Assembly (NCBI GenBank): GCA_965205425.1
Contig: CBDBGZ010000009.1
Coordinates: forward strand, 160,001 to 224,000
DNA: 64,000 nucleotides
Direction: 5' to 3'
Origin: Nitrosopumilus sp.
Lineage (GTDB): Archaea > Thermoproteota > Nitrososphaeria > Nitrososphaerales > Nitrosopumilaceae
The notes under the pieces were generated by a model. It had not been told where the DNA came from, did not search any database, and saw only the letters and a program-made list of their open reading frames with translations. The position numbers and the translations under genes are program-made. The stretch's first letter is position 1, and each line of letters begins with the position of its first letter. Shown here piece after piece: positions 21,357 to 37,637 of the stretch.

Positions 21357-21357
21357 A

Positions 21358-21771
21358 TTACTTGTTCCTCCTTTGTGTTATCAGTAGTTGGGAAATATTG
21401 AACAAAACACATTTTGCATAGACATCAAAGGAAATGTTTTGTGATTGACACCATTCCTCGTTAATAATTACTGGGTGATACCCAGCAGTGACATAGTCTG
21501 AATTTCTGTTATACGTTTGAGAAGACATTGACATTTCATCACCTGAACCGTGAATAGTACCATCTAGTTCTATCGGGATGGTATGACCATACTTTTTTAC
21601 TATAAAATCAGGATAACGCCTTTCATGAATGAAAGAATGATTAATGATAACCTCATTACGTAATGGATGAAATTCTGATAATTCCTTTTGCAGTTTATCT
21701 AGTTTGGTACTATCTGAATTACGATCTCTTTTTTTGGATGTTGCTGCCCTTACAAAGGATTTTCCTTTCAT
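21358..21771 (-). CDS. Vsr/DUF559-like PD-(D/E)xK endonuclease
   Basis: YPDFIV...IELDGTIH...RN..Y...GY. Confidence 0.7.
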   Translation of the reverse strand: MKGKSFVRAATSKKRDRNSDSTKLDKLQKELSEFHPLRNEVIINHSFIHERRYPDFIVKKYGHTIPIELDGTIHGSGDEMSMSSQTYNRNSDYVTAGYHPVIINEEWCQSQNISFDVYAKCVLFNISQLLITQRRNK

Positions 21772-22028
21772 GCAGAAAACCTCTTGTTGATAAATTGGAT
21801 TATCTCGTTTAATTTTTTGCGATTATCTAGTGCAAGTGCTTCAGAGTAGGATATTTCACCAATAGATACAACAGGTAACGGAATGATTATTTTGCCTTGT
21901 TTTTTCCTAATGTGATGTTCCAACTGTACAATTATAGTTTCAATTTCAGATATTGCAGTTGGTGTATTGCCTAGTTCTAAGAGTTTTTTTATCTTGTCTA
22001 ATATTATGATGATGTTCTGATCTTCCAT
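21768..22028 (-). CDS. Hypothetical protein
   Basis: ORF with start/stop overlaps in the operon. Confidence 0.6.
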   Translation of the reverse strand: MEDQNIIIILDKIKKLLELGNTPTAISEIETIIVQLEHHIRKKQGKIIIPLPVVSIGEISYSEALALDNRKKLNEIIQFINKRFSA

Positions 22029-22234
22029 TATTGTATAGCCCCCAATGGAATTTTTAATTTCCTAACGTCTGATTTTGTGACAAATGATAATCTTATTGCA
22101 CAACGCAAACAGAACTGTTTACTTCGTGGTCTTGATACTGCATACTTTCCTTCTAGTATGATTTTGCAGTGATAACAGGTGATGTTATGATACTTACAGA
22201 TGTATAATCGAGAGCCACGTGTCAGTTTGACCAT
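22028..22234 (-). CDS. Small Zn-finger protein
   Basis: CYHC...FCLRC. Confidence 0.65.
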   Translation of the reverse strand: MVKLTRGSRLYICKYHNITCYHCKIILEGKYAVSRPRSKQFCLRCAIRLSFVTKSDVRKLKIPLGAIQ

Positions 22235-22346
22235 TATTTTTCATCCTCCATATTTGAGATTCCTAGTTCATCGCAAATTGCTACAAACTGTACCTTGCCA
22301 TGAGCCGATACATACTGATCATGTATGATTCGTCTTACTGCTGAAT

Positions 22347-23750
22347 TCATTGTATTACTCCTTTAAGTGAAGATTCAGATTTGTTACCGTTTGAATAGTA
22401 AATTAGGGCATGACCCCAAGAGCAGAACATTCTATTTGATTCAGGAATGGTGACTTTAGGAGGTCTGCAAAAATCACACCTTCCAGCGTGTAGTCTCTGC
22501 TCGTTTGTGAGTTTACCGTAAACTTGGGTGATCATGTTTGGATCATCCCAGCCTAAGGACATTACATATACGACATTGTAATTGCAACGTCTTAGCCACA
22601 TATGGCATCCTGAATGTCTTAAGGCGTGTCCTGGCTTGTTTGACAGATAGTATCTGTCACCATCAATTACTTTTTTGTAGACGTTAGGGTTGGTTACTGC
22701 ATCTCCTGAAATTCTATCTACACTTGCATATGCTTCTCGTAGTAGTTTATTGAATTTGGATTTTACATCTGATAGACTGGAATATTTCACGAATGTTTCA
22801 TTTGGAGTTAGCGTATTGAGTAATTCTAAACATCTTGGATTGAAAATCAGCTTGTCAAATGAAGCAAAGGTTTTCTTTTCATATACTCCTAGTGCTTCTG
22901 CATAATTGCAAATGTGATCCTCTATTGCTTCTTTCTTTAGTGTGAGATTATTTTTCATGGTGTGTAAAGTATCAGGTCTTGGTATCATTTCATGTGCTAT
23001 TGCAGTTAGTGCCTCAAAGTTGTATTTTGTTGAATGGTCTTTCATGAAATCTAGTATTTTATCAACTTCTAAATCTGATAGTTGGACGTTGGCATATGCT
23101 CCATAGTTTTCTTTTTTTCTTGATAATACACCATCAGAATTTTTTGGCAATGGCTTACCATTTCTAAAACAAAAGTTTGCAACTGCTGATACATATGCAG
23201 TAATTGATGTGTCTGCTCCTGACTTTAGATGTAGTTTGGAATTTTTCGATGTAGAATATTTTGTCTCACCAGCTAGGAATAATTCTTTGAATCTTGATAG
23301 TAGTTTTTCTGTTTCTTCTGGAGAAATTAAAAATGATAATGGTGCAACGTTTAGTGTTTTGCATACTGTGTAAAATGCTGAAACCTTACTTTTCCATGCA
23401 ACGATACCAGTTCCTTTCTTGCCACCTTTGAGCATTTTGTCAATCCATATTTTGACCTCTGGATTCTTACCATCAAGCCATTCTGATTTTAGTAATTCTT
23501 CATAGTGCTGTTTCTCTTTTTGAATTTGTGATTTTTTCACTCTACCTGATTTTGTCTTTTCTAATCTACCTTGTGAGATTAATTTCTTGAAATAATTAGT
23601 AATCATTGGAGGCGAACGATTAACTAATTCTGAGATTTGGTTTCTATTGTAGCCTTGAATTACCAAATCATAAACTCTGTCCAAAAGACGATTCTCATCA
23701 TCTTCTGAGCCAATACGACCACCGAAATTCTTGTAATTTCTACGTGCCAA
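22347..23750 (-). CDS. Tyrosine recombinase/integrase with N-terminal HTH and C-terminal Zn finger
   Basis: Catalytic set R (IPRPD), K (EKKT), HALRH, LGW, Y (QVYG); tail CDFC...FCSWGH. Confidence 0.85.
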   Translation of the reverse strand: MARRNYKNFGGRIGSEDDENRLLDRVYDLVIQGYNRNQISELVNRSPPMITNYFKKLISQGRLEKTKSGRVKKSQIQKEKQHYEELLKSEWLDGKNPEVKIWIDKMLKGGKKGTGIVAWKSKVSAFYTVCKTLNVAPLSFLISPEETEKLLSRFKELFLAGETKYSTSKNSKLHLKSGADTSITAYVSAVANFCFRNGKPLPKNSDGVLSRKKENYGAYANVQLSDLEVDKILDFMKDHSTKYNFEALTAIAHEMIPRPDTLHTMKNNLTLKKEAIEDHICNYAEALGVYEKKTFASFDKLIFNPRCLELLNTLTPNETFVKYSSLSDVKSKFNKLLREAYASVDRISGDAVTNPNVYKKVIDGDRYYLSNKPGHALRHSGCHMWLRRCNYNVVYVMSLGWDDPNMITQVYGKLTNEQRLHAGRCDFCRPPKVTIPESNRMFCSWGHALIYYSNGNKSESSLKGVIQ

Positions 23751-24105
23751 ATTCTTGCACTCCTGAAACCAGAATGCAAGGAAATGGTAGAAACTACAGT
23801 ATTGACTGAGAAGTTTGTGTATGAATTTTCTATTTTGTGTGTTTCCTTTGCATGCATGTTTGGACGTTGTGACTATGAATTAGTTGATCTTAAAGGTTAC
23901 TGTCAAGAAATATCGATCTAAATTTGTAAAAATTACGTCAAATTGACAATTCAGATCGCCAGAATATTATAGATCAATTCAAAAAAAAAAGATGCAGTTG
24001 GGGTCAGCATACGTGTTTGGACGCTTGTATTGACTGTGTGGTTAAATCCATAGCCTCAACTGCACTAGAATTATAACCAGTATGATAAAGTCATGAAGGT
24101 TATTA

Positions 24106-25251
24106 TAGTTAAGGCATTAAATATTTGAATATTTTAACAACTCGAACGTCTCCATTATCTAGTCTCTTCTGCATGTGTTTTCTCATCTCAGTTCCATTTG
24201 CAAAGAATGTATTGGCATTACCATTTTTCTCTTCTCTCCACTGTACCTCAATTGGATTGAGTTCTGGGGTGTATGCAGGAAAATATCTTATGATTACATT
24301 TCTTTTTGATTTCTTGAGAAATTCTTTTACTCTGACACTTTTGTGGTATGATGCATTGTCTGCAAATAATAACAGTTTCTTGCCAAATTGTTTCTGCAGT
24401 GATTCTAAAAAATCAAGAAATGAGTCTGTGTTTGATTTATCATAGAACCTACAAAAAAATACGCCGTCATCCCCCAATGCACCAAATGATTGAAATTTTT
24501 CTCGAGTGTAATTAATTGGTGTGGTAATGTTATTGCCTGCAAGATACCATCCGCGCTTTATGTTAGGTGCTATCTTGTTTGTTGACTCATCCAGACATAG
24601 TGTGGTGTATCCCAATTTGGAATATTTTTTGATACTCCTTTTTGCGTTTTTTTAAAACGGGTTTGTTCCTCTTTTGAGGCTGATTTGTGATGTGTGGGAC
24701 GTGGTTTTTTTGATGAGAATCCAATTCTGTGCAGCAATTCACGCATTCCTCTTGCAGAGTATAGGGTGTTGTATTTTTTATTCACATGTGTAATTACCAT
24801 TCTTGTACTCCACATGAATTGGTTAAATCCAAACTTTTCTGGACCTGAAATTAGATCATTTCTTAATGATACTAGCTGTTTTTCATTTAGAAAACATCTA
24901 GAACCAGAATATTTCTTGCGGTGTGATGCAGATATTCCCTCTTCATCCATTCGATTTAGCCAGTAGGACAAAGTTGATGGTATGACATCCAGACTTGCAC
25001 ATATCACAGAATACGGAATATTTTGTTTTCTTAGTATTGCAGCCTTTAATCTTATCTTTGCTTTTGCATTTTTTTCATTCTTGCATACTTTTCTTAAAAA
25101 ATTAATGCTTGTACCTTTCATGAATTGATTTCCAGAGGAAACCTTGGATTGTCTTGTACTCTTTGACATGGTTTCATGAATTGATTCTACGATCTAGATC
25201 TTTTGAGTTAAAATACTTGACAGTTTATTCAAAATTTATATGCCTAAACTA
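24106..25251 (-). mobile_element. IS630-family element inside the provirus (ORFs 24570..25169 and 24109..24615)
   Basis: TIR TAGTTAAGGCAT / ATGCCTAAACTA flanked by TA; LDES, DNASYH, YTPELNPIE; slippery TTTTAAAAAAA in the ORF overlap. Confidence 0.9.
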
Positions 25252-25267
25252 TATGTTCTAATCAGAT

Positions 25268-25867
25268 TTGATAAAAATAGAAATAATTCTCAAAAGATTT
25301 AAGATTGTAAATTTATTCCAATACATGAAAATTGCATTAATTGCAGTTGTTGCAATAGTCGGAATTTTTGGAATTATTTATGTCATGGGTGATGATGATG
25401 AATCTACAAAATATTACAATGAATTTACAGAAGAAGATGTTAGGAATTTTGAGTTAGAATTATTTGAAATTACAAATCAGAAAAGAATTGAAAATGGTGT
25501 GCAACCCTTAGTATGGGATGATAGATTACATAGTATAGCAAAAAATCATAGCCAAGACATGGCAGAAAAGAATTATTTTAATCATAATAATTTGGATGGA
25601 ATGTCTGCTTTTGATAGGGGAAATAATGCATACTATGAATGTGAAAAAGAAAGAGAGAGTATTATGTATGAAGGAATTTCTGAAAATATTTCTCAAATGG
25701 GATTAGAACGTAAAAATTATGAATCAATAGATGAAGAAACTATCGTTGATGGTTTGATGAATAGTTCAGAACACAGAGAAAACATGTTAGATAATGCATA
25801 TATAAAAATTGGAATTGGTATTGCAATAAATGAAAATCATTTGTACACAACTCAAAACTTTTGTTAG
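25268..25867 (+). CDS. Membrane-anchored CAP/SCP-domain protein (copy 1)
   Basis: N.KR..NGVQPL, HSQDM..NYFNH, SENI, MNSSEHRENM, TQNFC; likely start at MKIAL. Confidence 0.88.
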   Translation: MIKIEIILKRFKIVNLFQYMKIALIAVVAIVGIFGIIYVMGDDDESTKYYNEFTEEDVRNFELELFEITNQKRIENGVQPLVWDDRLHSIAKNHSQDMAEKNYFNHNNLDGMSAFDRGNNAYYECEKERESIMYEGISENISQMGLERKNYESIDEETIVDGLMNSSEHRENMLDNAYIKIGIGIAINENHLYTTQNFC

Positions 25868-25910
25868 TTTAGATCGCCAGAGATAAAAAGACAAAAGTAA
25901 TTTTTATTTT

Positions 25911-26108
25911 ATGAGTAAATTGTCAAACACAGACACAATGATTTTACTTGGAATTATTGGAATTGTCGTGTATGCCTTAATGACATATTCTTTAGACATA
26001 TCAAATAATGATACAATATGGATTGCGTGGATTATAATCAGTATTATTTTACTTGTAGTTGGGATTACAATCAAAGTATACACTAAAAATTCATCATCTG
26101 AAATTTGA
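25911..26108 (+). CDS. Small two-TM membrane protein
   Basis: Two hydrophobic stretches; GATCGCCA...ATAAAA promoter-like sequence upstream. Confidence 0.65.
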   Translation: MSKLSNTDTMILLGIIGIVVYALMTYSLDISNNDTIWIAWIIISIILLVVGITIKVYTKNSSSEI

Positions 26109-26201
26109 TCTGTCAAACCTAAATTTTGCCACACAGTATCCTAGAAAAAATACTTTTCCCATCAATCCAAACAAAATTAATTCATACAACGGAGATTCCA
26201 A
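26094..26201 (-). CDS. 35-aa single-TM peptide (not in ORF track)
   Basis: MESPLYELILFGLMGKVFFLGYCVAKFRFDRSNFR (TTG start), 25 nt below motif A. Confidence 0.45.
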   Translation of the reverse strand: MESPLYELILFGLMGKVFFLGYCVAKFRFDRSNFR

Positions 26202-26242
26202 GATCCATCAGATACAACAAATGAGAATAAAAAAACTAGGTT

Positions 26243-26422
26243 TTATAGTTCCCACCATGCTTTAGTTTTCTTTGCTTTCTTTTTTGATTTAGTTTTCTTC
26301 TTGGAAATTCCAAAATCCAACAATCCTGGAATAGATGATTTACCATTAGACCTTTTCTTTGGGATTTTATCTATTGGATGTGGGCTATCTGCATGAATTC
26401 CTATTCTTGATTTTTCAAACAT
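26243..26422 (-). CDS. 59-aa basic protein with GLLDFG motif (not in ORF track)
   Basis: MFEKSRIGIHADSPHPIDKIPKKRSNGKSSIPGLLDFGISKKKTKSKKKAKKTKAWWEL; tail resembles that of the 863-aa protein. Confidence 0.65.
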   Translation of the reverse strand: MFEKSRIGIHADSPHPIDKIPKKRSNGKSSIPGLLDFGISKKKTKSKKKAKKTKAWWEL

Positions 26423-26536
26423 AACGATAGAATTTAATGTATTTTATAGGAAATAATGATCTAAAAAGATTAGGTTTTGTTAGATTTAGATCCATAGTTT
26501 TTCACAATCTAAATAAATGATCAGATTTAGTAATAA

Positions 26537-27082
26537 ATGATGTCAATTTCAGTATCTTATCCAAAAATTATAGAATTGGAAGACGGTAATCAAGTTGAAA
26601 TTACAACAGACGTATGGAAAAATAGACAACTTGTTGTAGAAACTGACAGAACAGAAAAAGAAGTTAGGGAAATTTTTGAAAAAGAAGGCTTCAAAACAAC
26701 GATAAAAGAATTTGTTAAAAATAATCAATTGGGTTCTGGAATGGTTAAAAAAATTGATGATTGGCAAGTGCATTTTAGATTTTTCCAACATGGCGATCAT
26801 ATACAAATTGATGGAGAAGTTGAAGTTTCCAGTGATTACACACAACATCTTACACATGGTTGGATCTCTGCATTCAAAGAAAGTATGGATATAATTTCAC
26901 GACATTTTAATGAACTTTGGGTTTATCACACAAAACTAAAAAAATATGTGAAAAGAATTGTCAAAGAGAATATTTTAGAACTTACTGAACCAAAAACAAA
27001 GACAGATGTTATTGATTTGTTATTGATTGGTATTGGAGCATTGTCTGCTGGTTTGTTAGTTGCAAGTGCTTTGAAGAAATAA
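26537..27082 (+). CDS. Hypothetical protein with C-terminal TM anchor
   Basis: 181-aa ORF with hydrophobic tail. Confidence 0.7.
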   Translation: MMSISVSYPKIIELEDGNQVEITTDVWKNRQLVVETDRTEKEVREIFEKEGFKTTIKEFVKNNQLGSGMVKKIDDWQVHFRFFQHGDHIQIDGEVEVSSDYTQHLTHGWISAFKESMDIISRHFNELWVYHTKLKKYVKRIVKENILELTEPKTKTDVIDLLLIGIGALSAGLLVASALKK

Positions 27083-27084
27083 AA

Positions 27085-27621
27085 TTATTTGATTCCTTCT
27101 ATCAATGTTAAAATCTGAACAAAAATTATTATTTTTTCCATTGTTGTTTTTTTATCTCTAATTATATATGTTGAAATATTTTCAAAATTTCGATATGATG
27201 TTATTTGCTCACAAATATTTTTTGATGTTTCATAAAAATTTGAAGTTCTTATTTTATCTAGTATTTTCTTAACTTGAATATTATCCAACTTGTTCTCTAA
27301 TTGTTGAAAACAATACAATTTCCCTTTTTCTGTAAATATTAGAGAACCTGATGAAATGATTTGATTATCGTCATTTTTATATTCAATTGCTACATCATCT
27401 AGGATTCCAACCTCTTGAAAATATTCTAATTCTTTTTGTAATTGAGCCATATCATCATCATAGTTTTCTATATTGATATTGTTTTTCGTTTTATCACAAA
27501 AATTATTTATTTCATTTTTCACATGATTCATCATACTTCCTTTATTACGAATATAGAAAATAACCCATTGTTGAAAGTTTGTTAATTCAACAAACGGAAT
27601 AATCCTTGTTTCATCACTCAT
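27085..27621 (-). CDS. Hypothetical protein (very AT-rich)
   Basis: 178-aa ORF; FTEKGK resembles a winged-helix wing. Confidence 0.6.
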   Translation of the reverse strand: MSDETRIIPFVELTNFQQWVIFYIRNKGSMMNHVKNEINNFCDKTKNNINIENYDDDMAQLQKELEYFQEVGILDDVAIEYKNDDNQIISSGSLIFTEKGKLYCFQQLENKLDNIQVKKILDKIRTSNFYETSKNICEQITSYRNFENISTYIIRDKKTTMEKIIIFVQILTLIEGIK

Positions 27622-27668
27622 CAGGTTAATTCAAATTTTTACATTTAATTATTTTATGTTGATCGCAA

Positions 27669-27884
27669 TCACCTATCATCTTTTTTCTCATAAATTTTTC
27701 CTAATTCCTCAAATAGTTTCTCATACTGCATCATTAGACTTTCAATTTCAGACTTTATTGTATCTGAATCCCATTTTGCTGCGATCAAGATTTGTATTCT
27801 TTCTAGTATTTCACGTTCAGTATCATATGATTCCTTTTCTAACGCTTCTTCTTGTTTGGTTTCTTTTGTTTCTTCTTTTTCCAT
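27669..27884 (-). CDS. Small acidic helical protein
   Basis: 71-aa ORF overlapping the end of the HNH gene. Confidence 0.55.
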   Translation of the reverse strand: MEKEETKETKQEEALEKESYDTEREILERIQILIAAKWDSDTIKSEIESLMMQYEKLFEELGKIYEKKDDR

Positions 27885-28825
27885 TTTTTAGATTCCTCAA
27901 GATTCCATCCGTGTAACTCATTATGACACTTTCGACATAGGGCGATCCCGTTGTTTTTGTTTAGCGAGAGTTTTGGTTGGATTGCCTTGTAGATTAAGTG
28001 ATGTGAGATTTCTGCTTTGGAATGACATATTTGGCACTTGTAATTGTGTAGTTTTTTGATGGTTGCAGACCATGATTGGAGGGCATAGCGGTATTCAGTA
28101 GGAGGGAGTTTGAGGGGAAAGCCTAGTTTTTTGAGTTGGTTTAGATTGGATTTTAATATTTTCTCAGGATAGAGTTTTCTATATTTCTTCTTATATTTTT
28201 TAGCCGTATCTTTATGTTTTAAACGATATTGTTTAGCTCGTTTATCGCATGTCTCTTTATTTTTTTGGTAATGATCTTTTTTGGCTTTTTTAATTTTTTC
28301 CTTATTTTCTAATGCATATTGTTTCTTACCTTCTCTGATCTTTTCTTTATTCTTTAAACGATATTGTTTTCGTTGTTGTTTTACATTATCTATATTTGAA
28401 TGATAATATTGATTAGTTTTCTTTTTGATTTTTTCTTTATTTTTGTGATAGTGTTCTTTTTTCTGTTGTTTTATTTTCTTTTTATTATCTAACCTGTATT
28501 GTCTACTTTGTTTATTGAGAATTATTTTATTTTTTTGACGATATAATTTAGTCTTTATTGAAATCTTTTCTTTATTCTTTTGTACATATTGTTTATTGAT
28601 TTGTTTGATTTTTTCTTTATTGTGTATACGATATTGTTTGTTATGTTTTAATATTTTTACTCTGTTTTTCTGATAATGTCTTTTTTTCTGTTTTCTAATT
28701 TTTTCTTTATTTCTTTTTCTATATTGTTTAGCTTGTTGTGCTATTTTTATTTTATTATTTTCATAATATTTCTTATCATATTTCCTTTGATTTTCTTTCT
28801 CTTCTTTTGATTTCTTTTTTGCCAT
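27839..28825 (-). CDS. HNH endonuclease with long Lys-rich ~15-aa helical repeats
   Basis: Repeats like KQYRxxNKEKIK; C-terminal CQIC...HH...N...LCRKCHNELH. Confidence 0.85.
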   Translation of the reverse strand: MAKKKSKEEKENQRKYDKKYYENNKIKIAQQAKQYRKRNKEKIRKQKKRHYQKNRVKILKHNKQYRIHNKEKIKQINKQYVQKNKEKISIKTKLYRQKNKIILNKQSRQYRLDNKKKIKQQKKEHYHKNKEKIKKKTNQYYHSNIDNVKQQRKQYRLKNKEKIREGKKQYALENKEKIKKAKKDHYQKNKETCDKRAKQYRLKHKDTAKKYKKKYRKLYPEKILKSNLNQLKKLGFPLKLPPTEYRYALQSWSATIKKLHNYKCQICHSKAEISHHLIYKAIQPKLSLNKNNGIALCRKCHNELHGWNLEESKKWKKKKQKKPNKKKR

Positions 28826-28919
28826 TTCTATTATTCTAATATTTGTCTACACATTTTACAAAAAATAGAATCATCCTCATCAATCTCATTTTCAAATCCA
28901 CAACGAGAACAGATAACTA

Positions 28920-29075
28920 TCAAGAATAATACCTCTCAATTTCCTTGTTGCAGGTAACACATTGAACAATTACAATATCAGTAGATGGGATTTTGAATTC
29001 AGATGTTGATTCGTGTTTGCAAAATCCAGTTCTTAGATATAGGACTTGATCCTGTGTGTAATCTTTTTTAGGCAT
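28920..29075 (-). CDS. 51-aa putative Zn-binding protein (not in ORF track)
   Basis: MPKKDYTQDQVLYLRTGFCKH...QCVTCNKEIERYYS. Confidence 0.5.
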   Translation of the reverse strand: MPKKDYTQDQVLYLRTGFCKHESTSEFKIPSTDIVIVQCVTCNKEIERYYS

Positions 29076-29089
29076 TATAGTTTAGAGTT

Positions 29090-29168
29090 ATTGAGGGCTC
29101 AGAGGGTCACGGCTTCATCATATTGAAGTCAGAAATCACGCTTCCCGATTCTCATCATTGCCCTCAAT
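29090..29168 (-). ncRNA. C/D-box guide sRNA
   Basis: ATTGAGGGC-A-ATGATGA-19nt-CTGA-7nt-ATGATGA-12nt-CTGA-GCCCTCAAT: four consensus boxes in canonical order and a perfect 9-bp terminal stem. Confidence 0.85.
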
Positions 29169-29252
29169 TATTCTAAATTTTCACCTCCAGTTTAGGCCAG
29201 CAAACGTTTTGATTTTGTATTGACTGTGTGGTTTTAGTTTGCATAGTTATAA

Positions 29253-29314
29253 TAGGGCCCTACTTTAATATTAATGTTTAGGGCCCTATACAGTTAAATA
29301 TAACTAGGGCCCTA
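29253..29314. promoter_or_regulatory. Three palindromic operators TAGGGCCCTA interleaved with two divergent TATA boxes
   Basis: Copies at 29253, 29279 and 29305 (exact 26-bp period); spacers contain TTTAATATTAA and TTAAATATAA. Confidence 0.85.
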
Positions 29315-29325
29315 TATCAAATCTA

Positions 29326-29490
29326 ATGATGCGAATATTAAAAAAAATAAATCGAACAGTTGGTGATAAACAATACTACAAATATCTAATTCCTGTTCCT
29401 AAAGAGATAATTGAAGATATGGGATGGTCAGAACTAACAAATGTTGATTTTAGGATAAAAGGAAAAATGCTCATCATTGAAAGAGAATGA
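29326..29490 (+). CDS. AbrB/MazE/SpoVT-family repressor, 54 aa (not in ORF track)
   Basis: MMRILKKINRTVGDKQYYKYLIPVPKEIIEDMGWSELTNVDFRIKGKMLIIERE; swapped-hairpin signature; ATGA overlap with the CAP gene. Confidence 0.8.
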   Translation: MMRILKKINRTVGDKQYYKYLIPVPKEIIEDMGWSELTNVDFRIKGKMLIIERE

Positions 29491-30086
29491 ATTATTATCT
29501 CCTAGCGATTCCAGCTATTGTTTTTCTTTTTGCTTTTGCAGTTTTTAGAGATGTTGAACAATCTGATCCAACACTTGAACAATACATATCACTAGAACAC
29601 AGACCTAATTATGACTTGAAAAATATAGAAAAATTGTTAGTAGAATATACAAATGAAAAAAGAATCAAACATGGAGTACAACCATTAGAGATTGACAATC
29701 AATTATACCTTCTTGCAAAAGAAAGAAGTCATGATATGGTAACAGGCAATTATTTTGATCATGTGAATTTGGATGGTTTGACTGTACAAGATATTGCAAT
29801 CAATACAGGATACAAGTGTGAAAAAGAATATGAAGGAATATCTTATGACGGTGTATCTGAAAACATCGCATTAAGACCACTTTCAAAATCATACATAATT
29901 GAAAATGAAATAAAATTATATGACTGGCATACAAATGAAAAATTGTTTGCAGAATTGAGTATTAATTCCGTAATGGATTCAACGGAACATAAAGAAAATA
30001 TGTTACATCCAGTTAATACTAAAATAGGGATTGGAATAGCAATTAATTCTGAGAATAAATTATATCAAACACAATTATTCTGCTAG
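29487..30086 (+). CDS. Membrane-anchored CAP/SCP-domain protein (copy 2)
   Basis: NEKR..HGVQPL, DM...NYFDH, SENIA, MDSTEHKENM, TQLFC. Confidence 0.88.
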   Translation: MNYYLLAIPAIVFLFAFAVFRDVEQSDPTLEQYISLEHRPNYDLKNIEKLLVEYTNEKRIKHGVQPLEIDNQLYLLAKERSHDMVTGNYFDHVNLDGLTVQDIAINTGYKCEKEYEGISYDGVSENIALRPLSKSYIIENEIKLYDWHTNEKLFAELSINSVMDSTEHKENMLHPVNTKIGIGIAINSENKLYQTQLFC

Positions 30087-30709
30087 TAATCCATCATACC
30101 TTTGAATCCAAAAGGATCATCATCACTCTTTTTCTTTCTTCTTTTTGATTTGGTTCCACTGCTTCCATAATCAAGTAATCCCTTAAACACAAAATCATCA
30201 TTGCTTTTCTTTTTACGTATGGTGGTTTTTGTATCGCTTCCATAATCTATCAATCCACTAAAACCAAAACTATTCTTTTTCTTTTCTCTCTTTGTAGTTG
30301 TCTTTCTCTTTCTCGTTTTCTTTTTTGGTTTCTCAGGTTCCATAAATCCAAAAAATCCACCTGAATCTTTCTTTGTTTTTCTCTTGGGCTTTGAATCTCC
30401 AAAAATTGAATCAGTTAATACAAACGGATCATTTTTCTCACGTTGCTTTCTTACTCTGATTTTTGTCTGTCTTTTTGTTTTGTTTCTGTGACAGTCAAGA
30501 CATAATGCTTGAAGATTTCCTATTGAGTTGTTACTAGGATCACCATCTCTATGATCAACATCATAATGTATTCCTCCTCTGCCTATCGGCTTGGAACAGT
30601 GATTGCATAGTTCTCTTTGACCTCGTGCTATTTTTTCTCGATTTGATTTTCCAACGTTCTTTCTCTTTGGTCTTAGTTTTTCTGTGAATCCATCAAAGAA
30701 GCCTGTCAA
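30083..30709 (-). CDS. HNH nuclease with basic/aromatic disordered tail
   Basis: CNHC...DVDHRDG...N...NLQALCLDCHRNKT; tail carries GLIDYG, GLLDYG and GMMDY. Confidence 0.85.
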   Translation of the reverse strand: MTGFFDGFTEKLRPKRKNVGKSNREKIARGQRELCNHCSKPIGRGGIHYDVDHRDGDPSNNSIGNLQALCLDCHRNKTKRQTKIRVRKQREKNDPFVLTDSIFGDSKPKRKTKKDSGGFFGFMEPEKPKKKTRKRKTTTKREKKKNSFGFSGLIDYGSDTKTTIRKKKSNDDFVFKGLLDYGSSGTKSKRRKKKSDDDPFGFKGMMDY

Positions 30710-30779
30710 ACGATCTGATCATGAAAAAGGTAAAATAAAAAAGATCATAGATCGCTATTTTTACAAATATCTAATTTGC

Positions 30780-33371
30780 CTAAAAATCCCAAAATCCTTT
30801 TTTCTTGGATTTTTTAGTTATTGTTTTCTTTTTTTTCTTTTTTACTGGTTTATCATAATCCATCATTCCAGTTATGTTTGATTTTTTCTTCCCTCTCTTT
30901 TTGGTTGCAGAATAATAATCATCAATAGGTTGAGAACTGAAAACAGATTTACCTACTTGTGATTTTTCGAATACACCACGAATAGCATGTGCCTCATAGA
31001 TTTTTTTAGGTCTACCTCCACCACCTCCGAAATAACCAAATCCACTACCATATTTTCTAAATGCAAATCTTTGTCTTTTACGTTGTTTTGGTGTTGTAGT
31101 TGTTTTTGTTGTAGGTGGTCGATATACAGGAACAAAAACAGGATCTTCAACAGGAGGATCATCAATTATAGGATCTGTTATCTGTGTAGGTGGGTGATCC
31201 CAAAACAAAGTTACAAATCCTTGGTCCTGATCTTGTTTTGGTTTGGTTCCTTGTTTTGAATCCGGTTTTTTCTTGAGAGGATTATCAATTAACGGTTCTA
31301 ATATTGGTCTAACTTTCTGCTTTGGTTTTGTTTTTCTTCCAACTGCCATAATACTTAACATACCTCCAACCTTAACACCAGGCTTTACACCACTTTTCAA
31401 TTTACTTTTACTTCCTGTCTTTGCACCTTTTCTCACAGTTTTACTAACTTGTTTGGTAACCTGTCCGTTCTTTCCAGTGTTCCAAAAGTCTTTTAGTTTC
31501 TGTGTTTGATTTTTTACAGTCTTTCCAGTTTGCTTTGCTGCATTTTGTTGTACCCATTTAGGTTGAGTTTTTTGTTTAGTAGATTGTTTAGTAGATTGTT
31601 TGGTTTTATTTTTTTGTATCAACTGCTGCTTTCCTGATTTGACAACTTTTCCAAATCCTGATGATTCACCTAATGCTGCTCTACTGTTTTTGTGTGGTTG
31701 CTTTACTTTGGCATCTTTTCCCAATTTTAAAATTCTGTCTGAGACCTTTTTGTTATTTGCCATAATTTTTTTAACAGCATTACCCTTTGCAGTTTTTACA
31801 ACACCTTTGCCAAATATTTCTGAAATAGTTCTAGGTTCTAAATCAATTCCTTTTGGAATTTCTTTTGATGTAATGTTTCCAGTTTTTCTAATTAGTAGAT
31901 TAGGGTTTACTTTGTAAGATTCAGCCTTGCTAGTTCTGATACGATTTTTGTCAATTTTAGGAACCTTGCTTGTAGCTCGTGCATAACTTATAGGATCACC
32001 AATTCCAAACTTTCCCTTGTTTAATGATCGTGGTTTTCTTTTTGGCACAGCAGAACCAACCTCTTCAGTCATTCCTTTTACATTCTTGTTTTTTACGCCT
32101 ACTTTTGCACCCTTGGATATTGCCTTTGCTACTTTTGGAACTTTGGGTAAAATGTTAATACCATATTTTGCAGCACCAATAGGTGGAACAATTACACTAG
32201 CACCAATAATTAATGCAGATGGCACAGCAGAACCGATACCATATGCAGGATTAGCCCAAAAATCAGTTTCTACTTTTTTAACACGTTCATTGAAATTTTT
32301 TGTAAAATCAGTGTTGCTCTCATAAGATTGTACCCCTGCATCCAACGGTGCAAAAATCAAGTTATCTAAGGAATTACCTTTCTGTGGAATCTGTTCTTTT
32401 CCTCGTACATACCTAACTACGTTTTGTCCTGTAATGTATAGATCTTTATATCCTGCATGTTGTCCTTTTGCATATTCCTCAAGAGGCGAACCAATTTTTT
32501 TGGGTTCAGGTTTTTTCACATCATTAAAAGAGAATTCATCAAATGGGTTACGTTGAGGTACAGTTCTTGCATATGGTATTGGTTCAGGAAATTTCATAGG
32601 AACCGTTCCCACTAGTGCAGGGTTTAATTTTGCCTGTTGTACAATACTATCACGTCTTTTTTTATTTTGAGTTGCTCTGATTAGTGCTGCTGCAGATGAT
32701 TCCTTTGATGTAACGACAGTTTCATCTACTGTTCTGTTTGCTTGTTGTTGTGCAAATTTACGCTGATCAGGATTTGATACTGATTCTTTTCTAGGGGATG
32801 GTCTGCCACCTGCACGTTGTAATTTGGTACTATCATATCCTGCTGATTCAATGCTTTGTTTTACCTTTTGATTCTGTGCAGTTGTTGCTTTGATTTGATT
32901 AATTTTATTTTGTTGCTGAGATTCTCTTAATGCAATTTGTCTTCTCTCTTCTGCCTTTACTGCTGCTGATCGTGCATTGGTAATTGATGATCGTCTATTG
33001 TATGCATCTTTTGCTTCTTTGCTTCTGGCATAGTTTCGAGCCAATGTTACAGCTGATGTGTTTCTATATCCTGCAGGATTTCTTGCTATCTGTCTTTGTG
33101 CCTTGGCTTTAGCCCACTGTGGAACGTTTGATTGCCGTAATGCTAGTCTTTGCAACTCTGCATTTCTATTTCTATTAATGGCATTAATTCTGGATGAATA
33201 TCTTCGAATTGCTTTACTGTTTGGTTCTCGGGTATATCCAATCAATCTTCTTATTCCATTGCGAGGATTTGTGCGATATTTTGGTTGTCTGCGATATTTT
33301 GATGGTCTAGCGCCAAGGGCTGCAACCTGAGCATTATATCTACCATTAATTGATTCTCTGGTTAGTGCCAT
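30780..33371 (-). CDS. 863-aa highly basic protein, candidate virion core/DNA-condensing protein
   Basis: Arg-rich N-terminus, one central hydrophobic segment, Lys-rich C-half; motif-B promoter upstream. Confidence 0.7.
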   Translation of the reverse strand: MALTRESINGRYNAQVAALGARPSKYRRQPKYRTNPRNGIRRLIGYTREPNSKAIRRYSSRINAINRNRNAELQRLALRQSNVPQWAKAKAQRQIARNPAGYRNTSAVTLARNYARSKEAKDAYNRRSSITNARSAAVKAEERRQIALRESQQQNKINQIKATTAQNQKVKQSIESAGYDSTKLQRAGGRPSPRKESVSNPDQRKFAQQQANRTVDETVVTSKESSAAALIRATQNKKRRDSIVQQAKLNPALVGTVPMKFPEPIPYARTVPQRNPFDEFSFNDVKKPEPKKIGSPLEEYAKGQHAGYKDLYITGQNVVRYVRGKEQIPQKGNSLDNLIFAPLDAGVQSYESNTDFTKNFNERVKKVETDFWANPAYGIGSAVPSALIIGASVIVPPIGAAKYGINILPKVPKVAKAISKGAKVGVKNKNVKGMTEEVGSAVPKRKPRSLNKGKFGIGDPISYARATSKVPKIDKNRIRTSKAESYKVNPNLLIRKTGNITSKEIPKGIDLEPRTISEIFGKGVVKTAKGNAVKKIMANNKKVSDRILKLGKDAKVKQPHKNSRAALGESSGFGKVVKSGKQQLIQKNKTKQSTKQSTKQKTQPKWVQQNAAKQTGKTVKNQTQKLKDFWNTGKNGQVTKQVSKTVRKGAKTGSKSKLKSGVKPGVKVGGMLSIMAVGRKTKPKQKVRPILEPLIDNPLKKKPDSKQGTKPKQDQDQGFVTLFWDHPPTQITDPIIDDPPVEDPVFVPVYRPPTTKTTTTPKQRKRQRFAFRKYGSGFGYFGGGGGRPKKIYEAHAIRGVFEKSQVGKSVFSSQPIDDYYSATKKRGKKKSNITGMMDYDKPVKKKKKKTITKKSKKKGFWDF

Positions 33372-33420
33372 AGTATCACCAAGAATTCCATTTCAAGGTT
33401 ATTTAAGGAAAAATTATTGC

Positions 33421-33888
33421 TCATCCTATGCCTACGCCTTTGATTTTACCATCCACAAATGGAATGATTTCGGTTCTTCTTAATTTGGAATAGTCCTTTG
33501 CTGAAAATACCTTTCTTGCCCATGATGGAAGTTTCTTTTGCTCTATTGTATCATGGTATAGTGCAGCACATGATAACGGAACAGAATATGTAATGTATTT
33601 TTGCTTGTTGTATATTGTTATTGATTCTCTTGTTGGTGATTCTATAAATGATTCAATGATTGCTTTGTATTCACCAGTTACAATGCTGTTTAGAATCTTT
33701 TTTGTTAGATAAAATGTTTTTTTCTTTTTTGTCTTTTCACTACAACAAGGACAAATGCGATTTTTCTCAAAAGTTACATAATCCTCACAGTTATTACAAA
33801 ACACTTTTTCTGCTGTAGGATTGTGTATTGACACATGGAATCTATTTCTGCATACTCCGACCCCTGCAACTTTCATATGTATGTCCAA
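33421..33888 (-). CDS. Zn-finger protein
   Basis: GVC...FCNNC...CPCC. Confidence 0.7.
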   Translation of the reverse strand: MDIHMKVAGVGVCRNRFHVSIHNPTAEKVFCNNCEDYVTFEKNRICPCCSEKTKKKKTFYLTKKILNSIVTGEYKAIIESFIESPTRESITIYNKQKYITYSVPLSCAALYHDTIEQKKLPSWARKVFSAKDYSKLRRTEIIPFVDGKIKGVGIG

Positions 33889-33890
33889 AG

Positions 33891-34238
33891 TTATTCTTCA
33901 CCGAATCCAGGTTTTGAGTGCATCATCTTTTTTGCATCAGGTGAATCAACAGAATATTTTATTTTATGCTGAGTTACGGAATTCAAAAACCAACCTCTTT
34001 CACTTGATGATGCTATCAGCCCACCCATTAGGCCCTCTGCTGCTTCTTCCCAAATCTGTGCAATCTCTGGAGGAACTGTACTTCGCATTGATAATATGCT
34101 GTGAATGCGATTTATCATCCGCATAGCCTTATCATCTGTTTTGAGTGTTCGAGATAACAGATTTAGACGATAAATTATAGGATCATCATTTTTGGATGAT
34201 GAATCAACCATGTCAATAATTTTCTCAACTGCACTCAA
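33891..34238 (-). CDS. Hypothetical protein
   Basis: TTG start 22 nt below motif A. Confidence 0.7.
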   Translation of the reverse strand: MSAVEKIIDMVDSSSKNDDPIIYRLNLLSRTLKTDDKAMRMINRIHSILSMRSTVPPEIAQIWEEAAEGLMGGLIASSSERGWFLNSVTQHKIKYSVDSPDAKKMMHSKPGFGEE

Positions 34239-34269
34239 TGATATAGATCAAATACTGAGAATAAAAAAA

Positions 34270-34629
34270 CTAGGTACTAGACCCATGATGTAACCTGTTA
34301 GTGACTAGTTGATAAATCACTATTCCAATAGATAACGCCAACAATACATATCCCACAGTTCTGGCAGGCTCATAAAACGATATCATCATGGAATTTACCA
34401 CCAGCCCTACAATCCCTACTAGTTGAACTGAATGGGTCCTAAGCCATATTATCCCTACAAAGAATCCCCAAATGGCAACAGGTGTTAGTTCACCTAGATT
34501 CCATTGTAAAGGCATTAGTAACACTCCAAACCCATCTTTTTCAAAATCACATGATGCATCTTTAAAGCAATTATCAATTACTTGTAGAAATGTAGATTGT
34601 AAAAATAAAACTATGATATTAGGATACAT
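34270..34629 (-). CDS. Multi-pass membrane protein
   Basis: Three C-terminal hydrophobic helices; stop codon lies within motif A. Confidence 0.7.
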   Translation of the reverse strand: MYPNIIVLFLQSTFLQVIDNCFKDASCDFEKDGFGVLLMPLQWNLGELTPVAIWGFFVGIIWLRTHSVQLVGIVGLVVNSMMISFYEPARTVGYVLLALSIGIVIYQLVTNRLHHGSST

Positions 34630-35367
34630 CTAAAATCCTAAACTAAAATTACCAAACACGTTACCAACTTGTGACATTATATTTTCAAAGTTTGTCATGA
34701 AGATAACTGCACCAACTAGGAAAAGTGCTATCGTTGCGATTGGAATTACTGTAGTTATTGTTTTTGACATTGACTTTAGATGTTTTTCTGCTGCTAGTAT
34801 CTCTTTTAGTCCTAGTTTGATTGATTGGGGGTTTACTTCACAGTATGAAGATAGGAATTGTTCCACGTTAAAATTAATTGGCTCTCTAATGGAACGTGCA
34901 ACAGTTTTAATCATTTCCTTTTGTTCTGTTTCTATTTCTGGTGTTTGCTGTATTGGTTCACCTTCTTCTGTAAATTCACCAGTTTGCTCTAAATTGATTT
35001 CATGCTCGTAATCATTAGTGGTTAATTCTACATCACTTTTTGCTTGTTGTTCCATTTGTATCTCAACATATCTTTCCAGTTCTGTTCTGTTTGTTTTTTT
35101 ACAGTAAATTTCAATTTCTTTAAGAGCCTGTGGATCAAGTGGGTTATAGTTTGCACCAGAATACAGATAAACTGACTGCTTGTAGATTGATAGTTTTCTA
35201 TCAGATCGTAGTCTGAACCATCCATATTTACATACAAAAAATGTGTTTAGTATCGGTTTAATTTTTACCAGTTCTAACTGCCCAGTTCTGGTTACTATCA
35301 TGGCTATTGGATGATTGGAGAACATCAGCTCTATTACTGGAAAGTGTTTTGATATGGAAAATGGCAA
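34630..35367 (-). CDS. Hypothetical protein with C-terminal TM
   Basis: 245 aa; motif-A promoter upstream. Confidence 0.7.
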   Translation of the reverse strand: MPFSISKHFPVIELMFSNHPIAMIVTRTGQLELVKIKPILNTFFVCKYGWFRLRSDRKLSIYKQSVYLYSGANYNPLDPQALKEIEIYCKKTNRTELERYVEIQMEQQAKSDVELTTNDYEHEINLEQTGEFTEEGEPIQQTPEIETEQKEMIKTVARSIREPINFNVEQFLSSYCEVNPQSIKLGLKEILAAEKHLKSMSKTITTVIPIATIALFLVGAVIFMTNFENIMSQVGNVFGNFSLGF

Positions 35368-35412
35368 TGATATAGATCAAATACTGAGAATAAAAAAACT
35401 AGGTTTTATGTT

Positions 35413-37005
35413 TTAGAACACTTTCTTTCCTAGGAACATTCCAACTGCAACAAGTAATACAATCATAGCCCACACTTCTGCTGATAACTCAAATAATCCC
35501 AACAATCCCATTATTCCTATTGTAGCCCCTGTAACTATAACGCCTACCTGTGCGTTTCTACCTGTCCAGATTGAGGCAACTATCAGAACTATCAAGAATG
35601 GAAATGGTACGCCAAACAATCCATCATTTCCAAATGATTCATTTATCATATCAAAACCTGATGTTATACCGTATGGTTTGTAGACTGTTTGTAACAGTAT
35701 GATATTTTCTGATTCGTCATAACATCTGATGTATGATGTGTGTTTGGTTAGAAATTCAGCATCATATGATGTGATTGATGTTTGATTGTTCCATTCATCA
35801 GTTGATGATGTGAAATGATTACAAAATAATGAAAAGGCATCTTGCTGTTTGTTTGCAGTAAATATTATTTTGTCTGCGGTGCTGTTGTAAGTGGATCTAG
35901 TATGATGGTAAAACAGATCATTTTTTATTAAATAAGTGGGCGATACATTGACAGTTCTAGTTTTAGTAACTGCATTATTCCCTGATGAATCAACTGAATT
36001 GTATGTTATAGAATAAGATCCTACTGCATCTGCAAAACCAGAACTATCTATTGTAACTGCTGAACCGTCATCTGTAGTTGCACCTAGTTCTGTGTAACCA
36101 CTACCTAATTCTATTTCCTGAGGATTATTTCCAGTTAGAGTTATGATTGGTGGTGTGGTGTCAACTACGTTAACAGTTCTTGTAACTGTAACTGCATTAT
36201 TCCCTGATGAATCAACTGAATTGTATGTTATAGAATAAGATCCTACTGCATCTGCAAAACCAGAACTATCTATTGTAACTGCTGAACCGTCATCTGTAGT
36301 TGCACCTAGTTCTGTGTAACCATTGCCTAATTCTATTTCCTGAGGATTATTTCCAATTAGCGTTATGATTGGCGGTGTTGTGTCTGAATTTGCAGAGTAT
36401 GTTATGGTCAGTATCGGATTTTGAAAATTCGAGTATTTGTGGATGTTTGATACTTGGATTTCTGTTCCGCCAATAACAGACATACCAAACCAGCCATTGT
36501 TTAGATTTGATGTAAGATCTGTGATTCCAGCACTTCCAAGCGATACGTTGAGTGTACCGCCTGTTCCATCACATATGATGGAATTGTACTGTGTTCCGTC
36601 TGCCAAGTCATCCCACAAAGAAGAGGCAGATGTTACACTTGGCTGATTTGACAAACTGTATATTCTACATTGGTTGTCACCTGCCTTACTTGCTACAGGA
36701 TCCTCATCAATTGAGAATTCAACATCAGATACTACAGCACCGTCAGGAATTGCAGATACATCCCACTCCAGATACATCCTGTAACAATCCTTTGGACTTC
36801 CGAATCTTGGAACGCCTGCAACAAGATATTGGTTTTCCAGATAGTTTAGGATTCCACCGCCATCACAAATATTGTTAGAGTCCACTTCCTCAATGTACCC
36901 GTCAATGCTAGGAGATAGTGATACGGTTTCTGCATATGCTGGAATTGTATTTACTAGAATTAGAGATGAGAAAACAAGTACAAAAACAAGATAGAATAAT
37001 TTCAT
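35413..37005 (-). CDS. Putative viral adhesin/spike: signal peptide, DNRLRE-like domain, two Ig-like (DUF5011-type) repeats, three C-terminal TMs
   Basis: DGYI...YLEWDVSAIPDGAVV; 2x DTTPPIITLxGNNPQEIELG; hydrophobic C-terminus. Confidence 0.75.
   Translation of the reverse strand: MKLFYLVFVLVFSSLILVNTIPAYAETVSLSPSIDGYIEEVDSNNICDGGGILNYLENQYLVAGVPRFGSPKDCYRMYLEWDVSAIPDGAVVSDVEFSIDEDPVASKAGDNQCRIYSLSNQPSVTSASSLWDDLADGTQYNSIICDGTGGTLNVSLGSAGITDLTSNLNNGWFGMSVIGGTEIQVSNIHKYSNFQNPILTITYSANSDTTPPIITLIGNNPQEIELGNGYTELGATTDDGSAVTIDSSGFADAVGSYSITYNSVDSSGNNAVTVTRTVNVVDTTPPIITLTGNNPQEIELGSGYTELGATTDDGSAVTIDSSGFADAVGSYSITYNSVDSSGNNAVTKTRTVNVSPTYLIKNDLFYHHTRSTYNSTADKIIFTANKQQDAFSLFCNHFTSSTDEWNNQTSITSYDAEFLTKHTSYIRCYDESENIILLQTVYKPYGITSGFDMINESFGNDGLFGVPFPFLIVLIVASIWTGRNAQVGVIVTGATIGIMGLLGLFELSAEVWAMIVLLVAVGMFLGKKVF
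35941..36384. repeat. 222-bp near-identical tandem duplication (Ig-like domains)
   Basis: 35941-36162 versus 36163-36384. Confidence 0.92.
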
Positions 37006-37007
37006 TG

Positions 37008-37253: not shown

Positions 37254-37308
37254 AGAACTATTGTTCCTCAGCAAATAAAAAAACTAGGTTTGTGTGTTTC
37301 ATGAATCT

Positions 37309-37572: not shown

Positions 37573-37637
37573 TAGTACCAAAAATCAAAAAAGGTTATTT
37601 AAGGAAAAAATTTTTGTTGTTTTATGCGTAATTTTTT

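Follow-up and report, generated by a model that had tools for sequence, protein, structure and literature searches.

This analysis concerns a small RNA gene, and the integrated element that carries it, in a 64,000-nt window of the genome of the archaeon Nitrosopumilus sp. The window is C9:160001-224000, where C9 denotes contig CBDBGZ010000009.1 of a genome of nine contigs (2,195,935 bp, 33% G+C); positions given without a contig prefix are those of the window. The gene occupies 29090..29168 on the minus strand, 79 nt including a 9-bp terminal stem, and reads as an archaeal box C/D small RNA (sRNA). From its 5' end, the stem ATTGAGGGC (29168-29160) is separated by a single A from box C, ATGATGA (29158-29152); there follow the 19-nt D' spacer GAATCGGGAAGCGTGATTT (29151-29133), the D' box CTGA (29132-29129), a 7-nt spacer CTTCAAT (29128-29122), the C' box ATGATGA (29121-29115), the 12-nt D guide AGCCGTGACCCT (29114-29103), whose N+5 position is the A at 29107, box D, CTGA (29102-29099), and the 3' stem GCCCTCAAT (29098-29090), which pairs with the 5' stem along its full 9 bp.

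An earlier sequence-only reading of this DNA had described the same four consensus boxes, 12-nt D guide and 9-bp stem, and the letters agree with it exactly; its arithmetic for the target letters at N+5 is likewise correct, the D guide pointing to a U and the D' guide to a C. The self-pairing of the D' guide that it suspected (GAAUC/GAUUU) is possible, but forms no part of the predicted minimum-energy fold. That fold does contain the terminal stem, in both the minimum-free-energy and the centroid structures (z = -2.48). Across three DNA contig sets the locus showed no variants, and a second study contributed nothing but identical sequence.

A strict pattern of the four boxes, which did not demand the 9-bp stem, matched once on both strands of the entire genome, at this gene, and not at all in any of 10 first-order Markov genomes of equal size. 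One could suppose that short motifs have come together by chance in AT-rich intergenic DNA, and the individual boxes are indeed short, with nothing further to favour that idea; set against it are the contrast between one genomic match and none in 10 simulated genomes, a 9-bp stem without a mismatch, and homologues with covarying stems in other genomes and metagenomes. Because such homologues exist, we consider chance to be refuted already and its residual probability negligible.

These homologues were aligned, and a covariance model (R1) was built from the family alignment in this analysis; the window gene scores 75 bits with it. Across the 11 members 96.6% of stem cells are paired, two pairs are changed on both sides, and the stem covariation score was equalled by none of 500 shuffles. 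Boxes C, D' and D are invariant throughout the alignment, and the C' box is kept in relatives from genome G201 and from the metagenome contigs L084 and L078. The compensatory stem changes, together with the presence of L7Ae, Nop5 and fibrillarin in the host, uphold the box C/D class that had been proposed, and, as far as sequence features go, the gene is a genuine member of that class.

The integrated element

The sRNA sits in an integrated foreign element. When 20-kb stretches were aligned against 20 congeners, the flanks were present in all 20, with similarity ending at about 16447 and returning at about 41397, and in 12 congener genomes the flanks directly abut. The interior is missing from 20/20 congeners except for copies of an IS630-family insertion sequence and a few hits shorter than 360 nt. 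The resulting island spans 24.9 kb, 16447..41394 (C9:176447-201394), and comparison of the junctions places a 9-bp direct repeat, TTTCTAGAA, on either side of it (plus strand, 16438..16446 and 41395..41403), the left copy within the host gene that the insertion splits. No terminal inverted repeats are present at the island ends. Both the 9-bp repeat and the protein-gene insertion site fit the description given for cryptic integrated elements of thaumarchaea (PMC6563490).

Most of the open reading frames (ORFs) in the island have no family assignment. The remainder include a P-loop ATPase, small membrane proteins, a 530-aa Ig-like protein with a signal sequence and C-terminal anchors, an 863-aa protein, a Dam methylase, two CAP-domain proteins and two HNH endonucleases. 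Five small proteins lie in a run, each with one to three hydrophobic segments, as in spindle-shaped viruses. The ATPase gene (39079..40209, minus strand) is the marker of the element family; of 400 other family genomes, 10 have it. Its matches in the phage collection are 10 in number and all 'Nitrosopumilaceae spindle-shaped virus' records, at 23-30% identity and with E-values down to 4e-21. Four such virus genomes share genes with the island at 23-32% identity: the ATPase and a 225-aa ORF in all four, the 530-aa ORF in three. In genome G038 the ATPase heads a collinear element of about 25 kb, which we regard as a sister element, and the closest ATPase homologues (P0001-P0004) lie on contigs of 15-29 kb and, in one case, 618 kb.

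No island ORF has a structural match in Pfam or PHROG. The 863-aa, 376-aa and 467-aa proteins have zero or weak matches among IMG/VR viral contigs, the ATPase profile finds only three weak P-loop matches there (34% over 67 residues), and neither the 863-aa nor the 467-aa protein has a match in the phage collection. The proposed 'Nipumfusiviridae', spindle-shaped viruses of Nitrosopumilaceae that are metagenomic predictions, are described with a proposed core to which an ATPase and a small helix-hairpin capsid protein belong (PMC10866085). The island resembles them in its core ATPase, its size of about 25 kb and its run of small membrane proteins, and differs in that identity is only 23-32%, no capsid gene is matched and no integrase is found in the island. 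The sequence-only reading had spoken of a provirus; the ATPase and two further genes common with putative spindle-shaped viruses speak for that term but, with neither an integrase nor a capsid gene identified, it is no more than plausible. From its gene content, we take the island to be a virus-like integrated element, and probably a distant relative of the 'Nipumfusiviridae'.

The motif ACCTAGTTTTTTTATT (at most one mismatch) has 14 copies in the genome, nine of them in the island between 17788 and 40915; all nine are on the minus strand and, where checked, lie about 20-30 nt before start codons. In strand bias and position they resemble an element-specific promoter, and they probably are one, giving leaderless messenger RNAs (mRNAs). 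No copy of this motif stands in front of the sRNA.

Several repeats in and around the island deserve mention in their own right. One transposase is found in the island, that of an IS630-family insertion at 24100-25255 (DDE_3 and helix-turn-helix ORFs), of which the genome has at least 13 further copies at 98-100% identity. Within the gene for the 530-aa Ig-like membrane protein there is a 219-nt tandem duplication (35944-36384, 94% identity). A repeat of about 140 bp, seen at 41937-42078 and 47803-47946, has at least 13 near-identical copies in the genome, one of them just inside the right flank of the island. Genome G215 also has copies, 83-86% identical, and the repeat may be a miniature inverted-repeat transposable element (MITE).

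An sRNA family and its tandem arrays

The window gene is one of a family of Nitrosopumilaceae C/D sRNAs with a common GAGGGC/GCCCTC terminal stem. R1 found members in 17 of 151 sampled family genomes, its own genome counted, and in 8 of 27 genera. None of the 9 other sampled Nitrosopumilus genomes contains an R1 relative; an exact-pattern scan of species genomes located the D-guide module in two further Nitrosopumilus genomes. One match, in genome G159, covered 25 nt within coding sequence and was dropped.

Relatives in other genomes are arranged head to tail. In genome G201 seven C/D genes follow one another at intervals of about 130-146 bp (L007 4723-5603, minus strand), and a second array, of six, is found 175 kb from the first (L014 1099-1824, minus strand). 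Every unit in both arrays has the stem TAGAGGGC/GCCCTCTA, and in some box C is decaying (ATTATGA, ATTATAA). The D guide AGCCGTGACCCT recurs unchanged in three G201 units and in one unit of genome G177. Units 4 and 5 of G201 agree with the window copy over the entire D guide and the CTTCAATA spacer, and in the D' spacer over the initial 7 nt only. Genome G080, of a different genus, carries a ten-unit array of the same family (L070 9581-11173, minus strand) that repeats the guides of the G201 arrays.

Certain of these guides match ribosomal RNA (rRNA) in the manner expected of methylation guides. The G201 guide GTTCCATTCATT forms 11 Watson-Crick bp with large-subunit (LSU) rRNA around 2071, which only 1 of 1000 shuffles equalled, and further guides of the arrays match small-subunit (SSU) rRNA around 535 and around 908.

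The arrays in both genomes have an actin-like (ParM/ALP) gene upstream on the opposite strand and a staphylococcal-nuclease-like gene downstream on the array strand, adjoining in G201 and about 4 kb away in G080. In G080 the ALP/ParM gene is at L070 11549-12460, with DNA methylases beyond it, and the nuclease-like gene at 4885-5556. In genome G016 the sRNAs adjoin restriction-modification genes. All three neighbourhoods are mobile or variable contexts, and the ALP and nuclease neighbours common to G080 and G201 suggest a conserved mobile element with arrays of guide RNAs as cargo. On L007 five copies of GGTCGCGTAATTAGACGACC, at about 5630-5930, separate the array from the actin-like gene (5953-6810). 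They resemble the centromere-type repeats on which ParM-style segregation systems act; 2 kb further along is a TBP paralogue (7997-8536).

Host proteins and host sRNAs

The host encodes the proteins with which a C/D sRNA works. Nop5 (C9:956061-956717) and fibrillarin (C9:955145-955801) lie side by side and L7Ae is at C3:19557-19829, each above its Pfam cut-off. R1 recovered four further, weaker C/D candidates in the same genome, among them one at C8:147051 with an 8-bp stem and the same scaffold. The host sRNA at C9:836232-836295 (plus strand) has a D guide, GGATCTTGAGTT, that forms 11 Watson-Crick bp and one G-U pair with the anticodon loop of the transfer RNA (tRNA) for leucine, tRNA-Leu(CAA); the predicted target is C34, 4 of 1000 shuffles did as well, and three genomes of a different genus have the same guide (on L030, L031 and L032). 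The stems of these candidates and the tRNA-Leu guide indicate that long terminal stems and tRNA-directed guides are normal for the lineage. By their 11-bp matches to rRNA and tRNA, some family members and host sRNAs are predicted to be working guides. A box D and stem motif at C9:152883 was rejected as an sRNA; it lies in coding sequence and has no box C.

Targets of the two guides

The sequence-only reading envisaged that the element uses the 2'-O-methylation machinery of the host against two 12-nt targets. The proteins are encoded, but neither target is matched anywhere in the genome with one mismatch or fewer. Genome-wide, mRNA and island included, contiguous matches to the D guide stay below 10 nt except on the antisense strand of the guide itself; the D' spacer has one match of 11 nt and one of 10 nt, about chance level. 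A partner of at least 9-10 nt, which the same reading had taken as the minimum for a methylation guide, exists for the D guide on two tRNAs and for the D' spacer on none of the stable RNAs. Our set of stable RNAs comprised 59 molecules and 9,037 nt. In it the D' spacer makes no Watson-Crick run with rRNA or tRNA longer than 6, a length equalled by 996 of 1000 shuffles; it is probably an orphan and not a working guide. Such a division is familiar, since tRNA-directed archaeal sRNAs are described as typically having one working and one orphan guide (PMC7994747).

With rRNA the D guide makes at most 8 contiguous pairs, and rRNA was rejected as its target: the site at LSU 1077 is mismatched beside the target nucleotide, and that at LSU 669 has only 8 pairs including a G-U. 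With tRNA-Ala(UGC) it forms 9 Watson-Crick bp over guide positions 2-10 (1-10 if a G-U pair is counted), with U47 in the variable loop at N+5; with tRNA-Asp(GUC) it forms 9 bp over guide positions 4-12, from G34 to U42, with U35 at N+5. Two stable RNAs with Watson-Crick runs of at least 9 were obtained by only 38 of 2000 shuffles.

Comparison between genomes divides its support between the two tRNAs. In favour of tRNA-Ala, the site is exact in three Nitrosopumilus genomes with a ...GCCGTGACCCT guide and is not found in G080, and the guide variant on L084 makes 9 bp with tRNA-Ala against 8 bp with tRNA-Asp. L084 also carries a second four-box sRNA (4593-4671, minus strand; 31.6 bits with R1; 12-nt D guide, 24-nt D' spacer), the last 12 nt of whose D' spacer have 10 bp of complementarity to the tRNA-Ala(UGC) T arm, equalled by 4 of 1000 shuffles; this match directly adjoins the tRNA-Ala site of the first sRNA and again favours that tRNA. 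In favour of tRNA-Asp, the G080 variant (AAGCCGTGACAT) makes 10 bp with it (14 of 1000 shuffles) and only 7 with tRNA-Ala, the G177b paralogue (AGCCGTGACGCT) makes 9 bp and only 7 respectively, and the four genomes compared show no difference in the tRNA-Asp arm. On these pairings, tRNA-Ala is our tentative choice for the target in this cassette lineage, at a probability a little short of even; some other target, or none, seems doubtful, and tRNA-Asp would be an unlikely one. A perfect 12-nt 'target' of the G080 variant was discarded, being the antisense strand of a second sRNA copy.

Three tRNA-like genes of 72-73 nt elsewhere in the genome (54916-54987, 254430-254501, 711260-711332) are called tRNA-Asp(gtc) by ARAGORN. 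Their sequences are unusual, the canonical tRNA-Asp being at C9:482364-482441, and they could be element-borne tRNAs or false calls.

A cassette with a small reading frame

Downstream of the sRNA, 14 nt from its end, a 51-aa Cys/His-containing ORF without Pfam or PHROG match starts at the ATG at 29075 (28920..29075, minus strand), and beyond it is a gene for a 328-aa HNH endonuclease (27839..28825, minus strand; Pfam HNH, phrog_144) with lysine-rich repeats in its N-terminal part. A search of metagenome contigs with the scaffold pattern returned 9 loci, of which those on the AT-rich marine contigs L078 and L084 are true homologues; the other 7, with 44-64% G+C and no match to an island ORF, were set aside. 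In the L078/L084 homologue the four boxes are identical, the stem has changed in compensation to TTAGAGGGC/GCCCTCTAA, 11 of the 12 nt of the D guide are kept and the D' spacer is unrelated. The D' spacer is 17 nt in the L084 and G201 relatives, against 19 nt in the window copy, where the D guide is 12 nt. The 51-aa ORF accompanies the sRNA on both contigs, at 83% amino-acid identity and with the same 14-nt spacing, and L084 additionally has a NUMOD3 ORF and a gene whose product is 43% identical to the 328-aa HNH protein. In 400 family genomes there is a single other homologue of the 51-aa ORF, in G256, 48% identical and without an upstream sRNA.

Elements of the same family do without the sRNA. 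With R1 and a relaxed box scan, no credible C/D sRNA was found in the G038 sister element or in 211 kb around the other ATPase homologues, where two matches were rejected, one (E 0.33) for having a box C-like motif and weak stem ends, the other (E 0.95) for an alignment of only 43 nt; the four related virus genomes gave 0 matches in 129 kb (4/4 without). Among IMG/VR viral contigs, the D-guide module and the family scaffold pattern gave zero or weak matches, with none for the scaffold pattern. The sequence-only reading had looked to related elements for conservation of the boxes; they are absent from the G038 element and all four virus genomes, but L084 and L078 keep all four. Absence from the sister element and from the virus genomes implies that the sRNA is not needed by the element family. 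It is accessory cargo, and forms a conserved cassette with the 51-aa ORF.

The fixed distance to the ORF raises the question of whether the sRNA sequence acts in cis: L7Ae, bound to kink-turns within the 5' leader of the mRNA for the 51-aa ORF and HNH protein, would control its translation or stabilise it, and guiding would be a side role or none at all. The 14 nt to the ATG, the retention of spacing and ORF on L084 and L078, and the lack of the usual promoter motif of the island ahead of the sRNA are all in keeping with this, and L7Ae-dependent regulation of translation in archaea has been reported (PMC5539422). Yet the arrays have this scaffold without any accompanying ORF, in G256 the homologous ORF is not preceded by an sRNA, and a leader would have no use for C', D' or a conserved 12-nt D guide; we judge a role in cis to be quite improbable.

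A proposed role in tRNA methylation

The explanation that we favour, at slightly better than even probability, is that this is a Nitrosopumilaceae C/D sRNA carried as accessory cargo, with the small ORF, on a virus-like element of about 25 kb, and that it guides the methylation of host tRNA. Because the element encodes no C/D proteins, the RNA, if transcribed, would rely on those of the host. Host L7Ae would bind the C/D and C'/D' kink-turns, and the bound sRNA would recruit host Nop5 and fibrillarin into a ribonucleoprotein. The 12-nt D guide, as the sole constrained guide, would then pair with a host tRNA, and a 2'-O-methyl group would be placed on the nucleotide opposite guide position 5. 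The favoured site would be U47 of tRNA-Ala(UGC), through 9 Watson-Crick pairs and one G-U over guide positions 1-10; the alternative would be U35 of tRNA-Asp(GUC), through 9 pairs from G34 to U42.

Several observations weigh against this explanation. The D' spacer of 19 nt departs from the usual spacing of about 12 nt. In a covariance check of the kind that the sequence-only reading had recommended, no match anywhere in the 64-kb window reaches an Rfam gathering score. When 28700-29600 (901 bases) was scanned permissively, C/D-box families on the minus strand of the sRNA made up 17 of the 27 matches listed, led by Sulfolobus sR3 with 28.1 bits against a gathering score of 41 (E 5.1e-5); the Rfam C/D families are built on particular guides from other genera, and a miss is expected. 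A single 9-bp run is matched by 109 of 1000 shuffles and is not significant alone, the guide variants disagree on their target (G080 and G177b pointing to tRNA-Asp, L084 to tRNA-Ala), and neither U47 nor U35 is among the ribose-methylated tRNA positions known to us. As to the carrier, all 8 Phage_integrase matches in the genome fall outside C9:176447-201394, with no tyrosine-recombinase match inside the island, and the sister element and the four virus genomes lack the sRNA.

Some of these points would suit a genuine C/D unit that was recombined from the arrays circulating in Nitrosopumilaceae and is now a passenger without function, its guides orphaned and either never or no longer directing a modification of use to host or element. 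Its absence from the collinear G038 element and the related viruses, the want of a genomic target with one mismatch or fewer for either guide or of any target for the D' spacer, the non-significance of the best single match, and the fact that units 4 and 5 of the G201 arrays, to which it is most closely related, lie in another gene context, all count in that direction. A passenger would not be expected, however, to have four consensus boxes and an intact 9-bp stem, or to retain 11-12 of the 12 nt of its D guide in each of three contexts although the D' spacer varies freely, and two tRNA matches of at least 9 bp are uncommon in shuffles. We consider loss of function unlikely.

The same features bear on a further idea, already raised by the sequence-only reading as sequestration of L7Ae, in which the RNA is a decoy that titrates host L7Ae, Nop5 or fibrillarin and so reduces the methylation of host rRNA while the element is active. 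Consensus boxes and a long stabilising stem would presumably bind strongly; but there is a single gene copy, nothing points to very high expression, stems of host sRNAs are equally long, and a decoy would have no need of a conserved D guide. Titration appears very improbable.

Relation to known systems

The closest parallels to the proposed activity are the sRNAs that guide tRNA methylation in Pyrococcus and Pyrobaculum, for example at position 34 of tRNA-Leu(CAA), tRNA-Met and tRNA-Trp. The window sRNA is like them in its four boxes and 12-nt D guide, and in the expected use of host L7Ae, Nop5 and fibrillarin with one tRNA-matching and one orphan guide (PMC7994747); its own host has such a guide for C34 of tRNA-Leu(CAA). 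It differs in lying on an integrated foreign element and not in the core chromosome, in its predicted U47 or U35 sites as opposed to the classic position 34, and in its 9-10-bp duplex and 19-nt D' spacer.

Mobility of C/D sRNAs has a precedent in the MITE-like elements of Pyrobaculum calidifontis (Lui et al. 2018, PMC6009581), which have conserved inverted repeats on their flanks, have multiplied within the genome, lie in non-aligning regions and carry orphan guides or guides to non-conserved tRNA targets, features that are similar here; their authors propose that such elements spread sRNA modules. Those elements are dispersed copies in a hyperthermophile chromosome with degenerate C' and D' boxes, and none is reported from a virus or plasmid, whereas here a single consensus four-box unit is found on a 25-kb element and its relatives form head-to-tail arrays. 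The v-snoRNA1 of Epstein-Barr virus is likewise a C/D guide carried by a virus and dependent on host methylation proteins (PMC2718842), with rRNA targets reported in a 2026 preprint (10.64898/2026.05.13.724956). It belongs to a eukaryotic herpesvirus and a nucleolar snoRNP, is directed to rRNA and has no sequence relationship to the present sRNA, which is archaeal and whose carrier is of unproven viral nature.

TIGR-Tas systems (Faure et al. 2025, PMC12045711) have dual-spacer C/D-like RNAs, occur in archaeal viruses and other mobile contexts, and include HNH-fused effectors. HNH genes flank the window sRNA on both sides, the 328-aa gene at 27839-28825 and a second gene, identified by Pfam, at 30083-30709, and tandem arrays are seen in the G201 and G080 relatives, so one might imagine a C/D-like RNA that programmes a neighbouring HNH protein against DNA. 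The only Nop-domain match in the genome is host Nop5, and both HNH proteins lack a Nop domain by Pfam, by a sequence search of solved structures and by the protein atlas. The other island ORFs show none either, and no Tas protein stands beside the sRNA. The spacers are of 12 and 19 nt and not 9 nt, the kink-turn boxes are complete with 12-nt spacing, and there is no array of short repeats, TIGR units of about 36 nt with 9-nt spacers contrasting with the 130-150-bp units of the related arrays. Several guides on the same scaffold also match rRNA like methylation guides. We give a DNA-directed function scarcely any credence; TIGR-Tas is a conceptual precedent, whose defining Nop-domain partner is absent here.

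Full-text literature searches brought up no earlier description of a C/D sRNA carried by a virus, provirus or integrated element of archaea. The words sRNA and snoRNA do not occur in the mobilome papers PMC6563490 and PMC10866085, nor the word 'virus' in the C/D sRNA papers PMC7994747 and PMC6009581, the former of which, a 2021 review, states that the mobile features of C/D sRNAs remain to be studied. The molecule itself is an ordinary archaeal C/D sRNA, and the novelty is in its location. C/D sRNAs are usually regarded as chromosomal housekeeping genes; here there is horizontal movement of methylation guides, with one on a virus-like island and, in two genera, arrays of relatives beside actin segregation genes of plasmid type. 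For a mesophilic thaumarchaeon, the repertoire of C/D sRNAs is readable from sequence, and the locus offers a directly testable case of a mobile element that may change host tRNA modification with just a 79-nt RNA.

A wider proposal, which is possible and in our estimation rather unlikely, is that the mobile elements of ammonia-oxidising archaea carry programmable C/D guides that rewrite the ribose methylation of host tRNA and rRNA through host fibrillarin, the carriers being a virus-like integrated element here and actin-segregated elements elsewhere. If so, the guide in the window would methylate tRNA-Ala(UGC), and the second guide on the sister contig L084 would be directed to the adjoining T arm; the tRNA could thereby resist a host or rival ribonuclease, or translation could be retuned for the element. 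This would be the first guide-RNA-based system for modifying host RNA on an archaeal virus or virus-like element.

Other features beside the sRNA

On the upstream side of the sRNA a divergent 54-aa ORF (29326..29490, plus strand) matches phrog_661 and phrog_4324, to neither of which a function is assigned, and has no Pfam match; its own sequence suggests a small DNA-binding regulator. In the gap between the two genes the palindrome TAGGGCCCTA occurs three times, 26 bp apart (29253-29262, 29279-29288 and 29305-29314), and the corresponding place on L078 (about 830-900) holds different, TAGTACATGTACTA-type palindromes. Their arrangement is operator-like and suggests a regulated divergent promoter region; that the palindromes differ at the same place is the pattern expected of co-evolving pairs of regulator and operator. 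On the other side, the gene for the 328-aa HNH protein contains eight repeats at 28203-28756, with an alternating start-to-start spacing of 45 and 90 nt, which encode the lysine-rich region ahead of the HNH domain.

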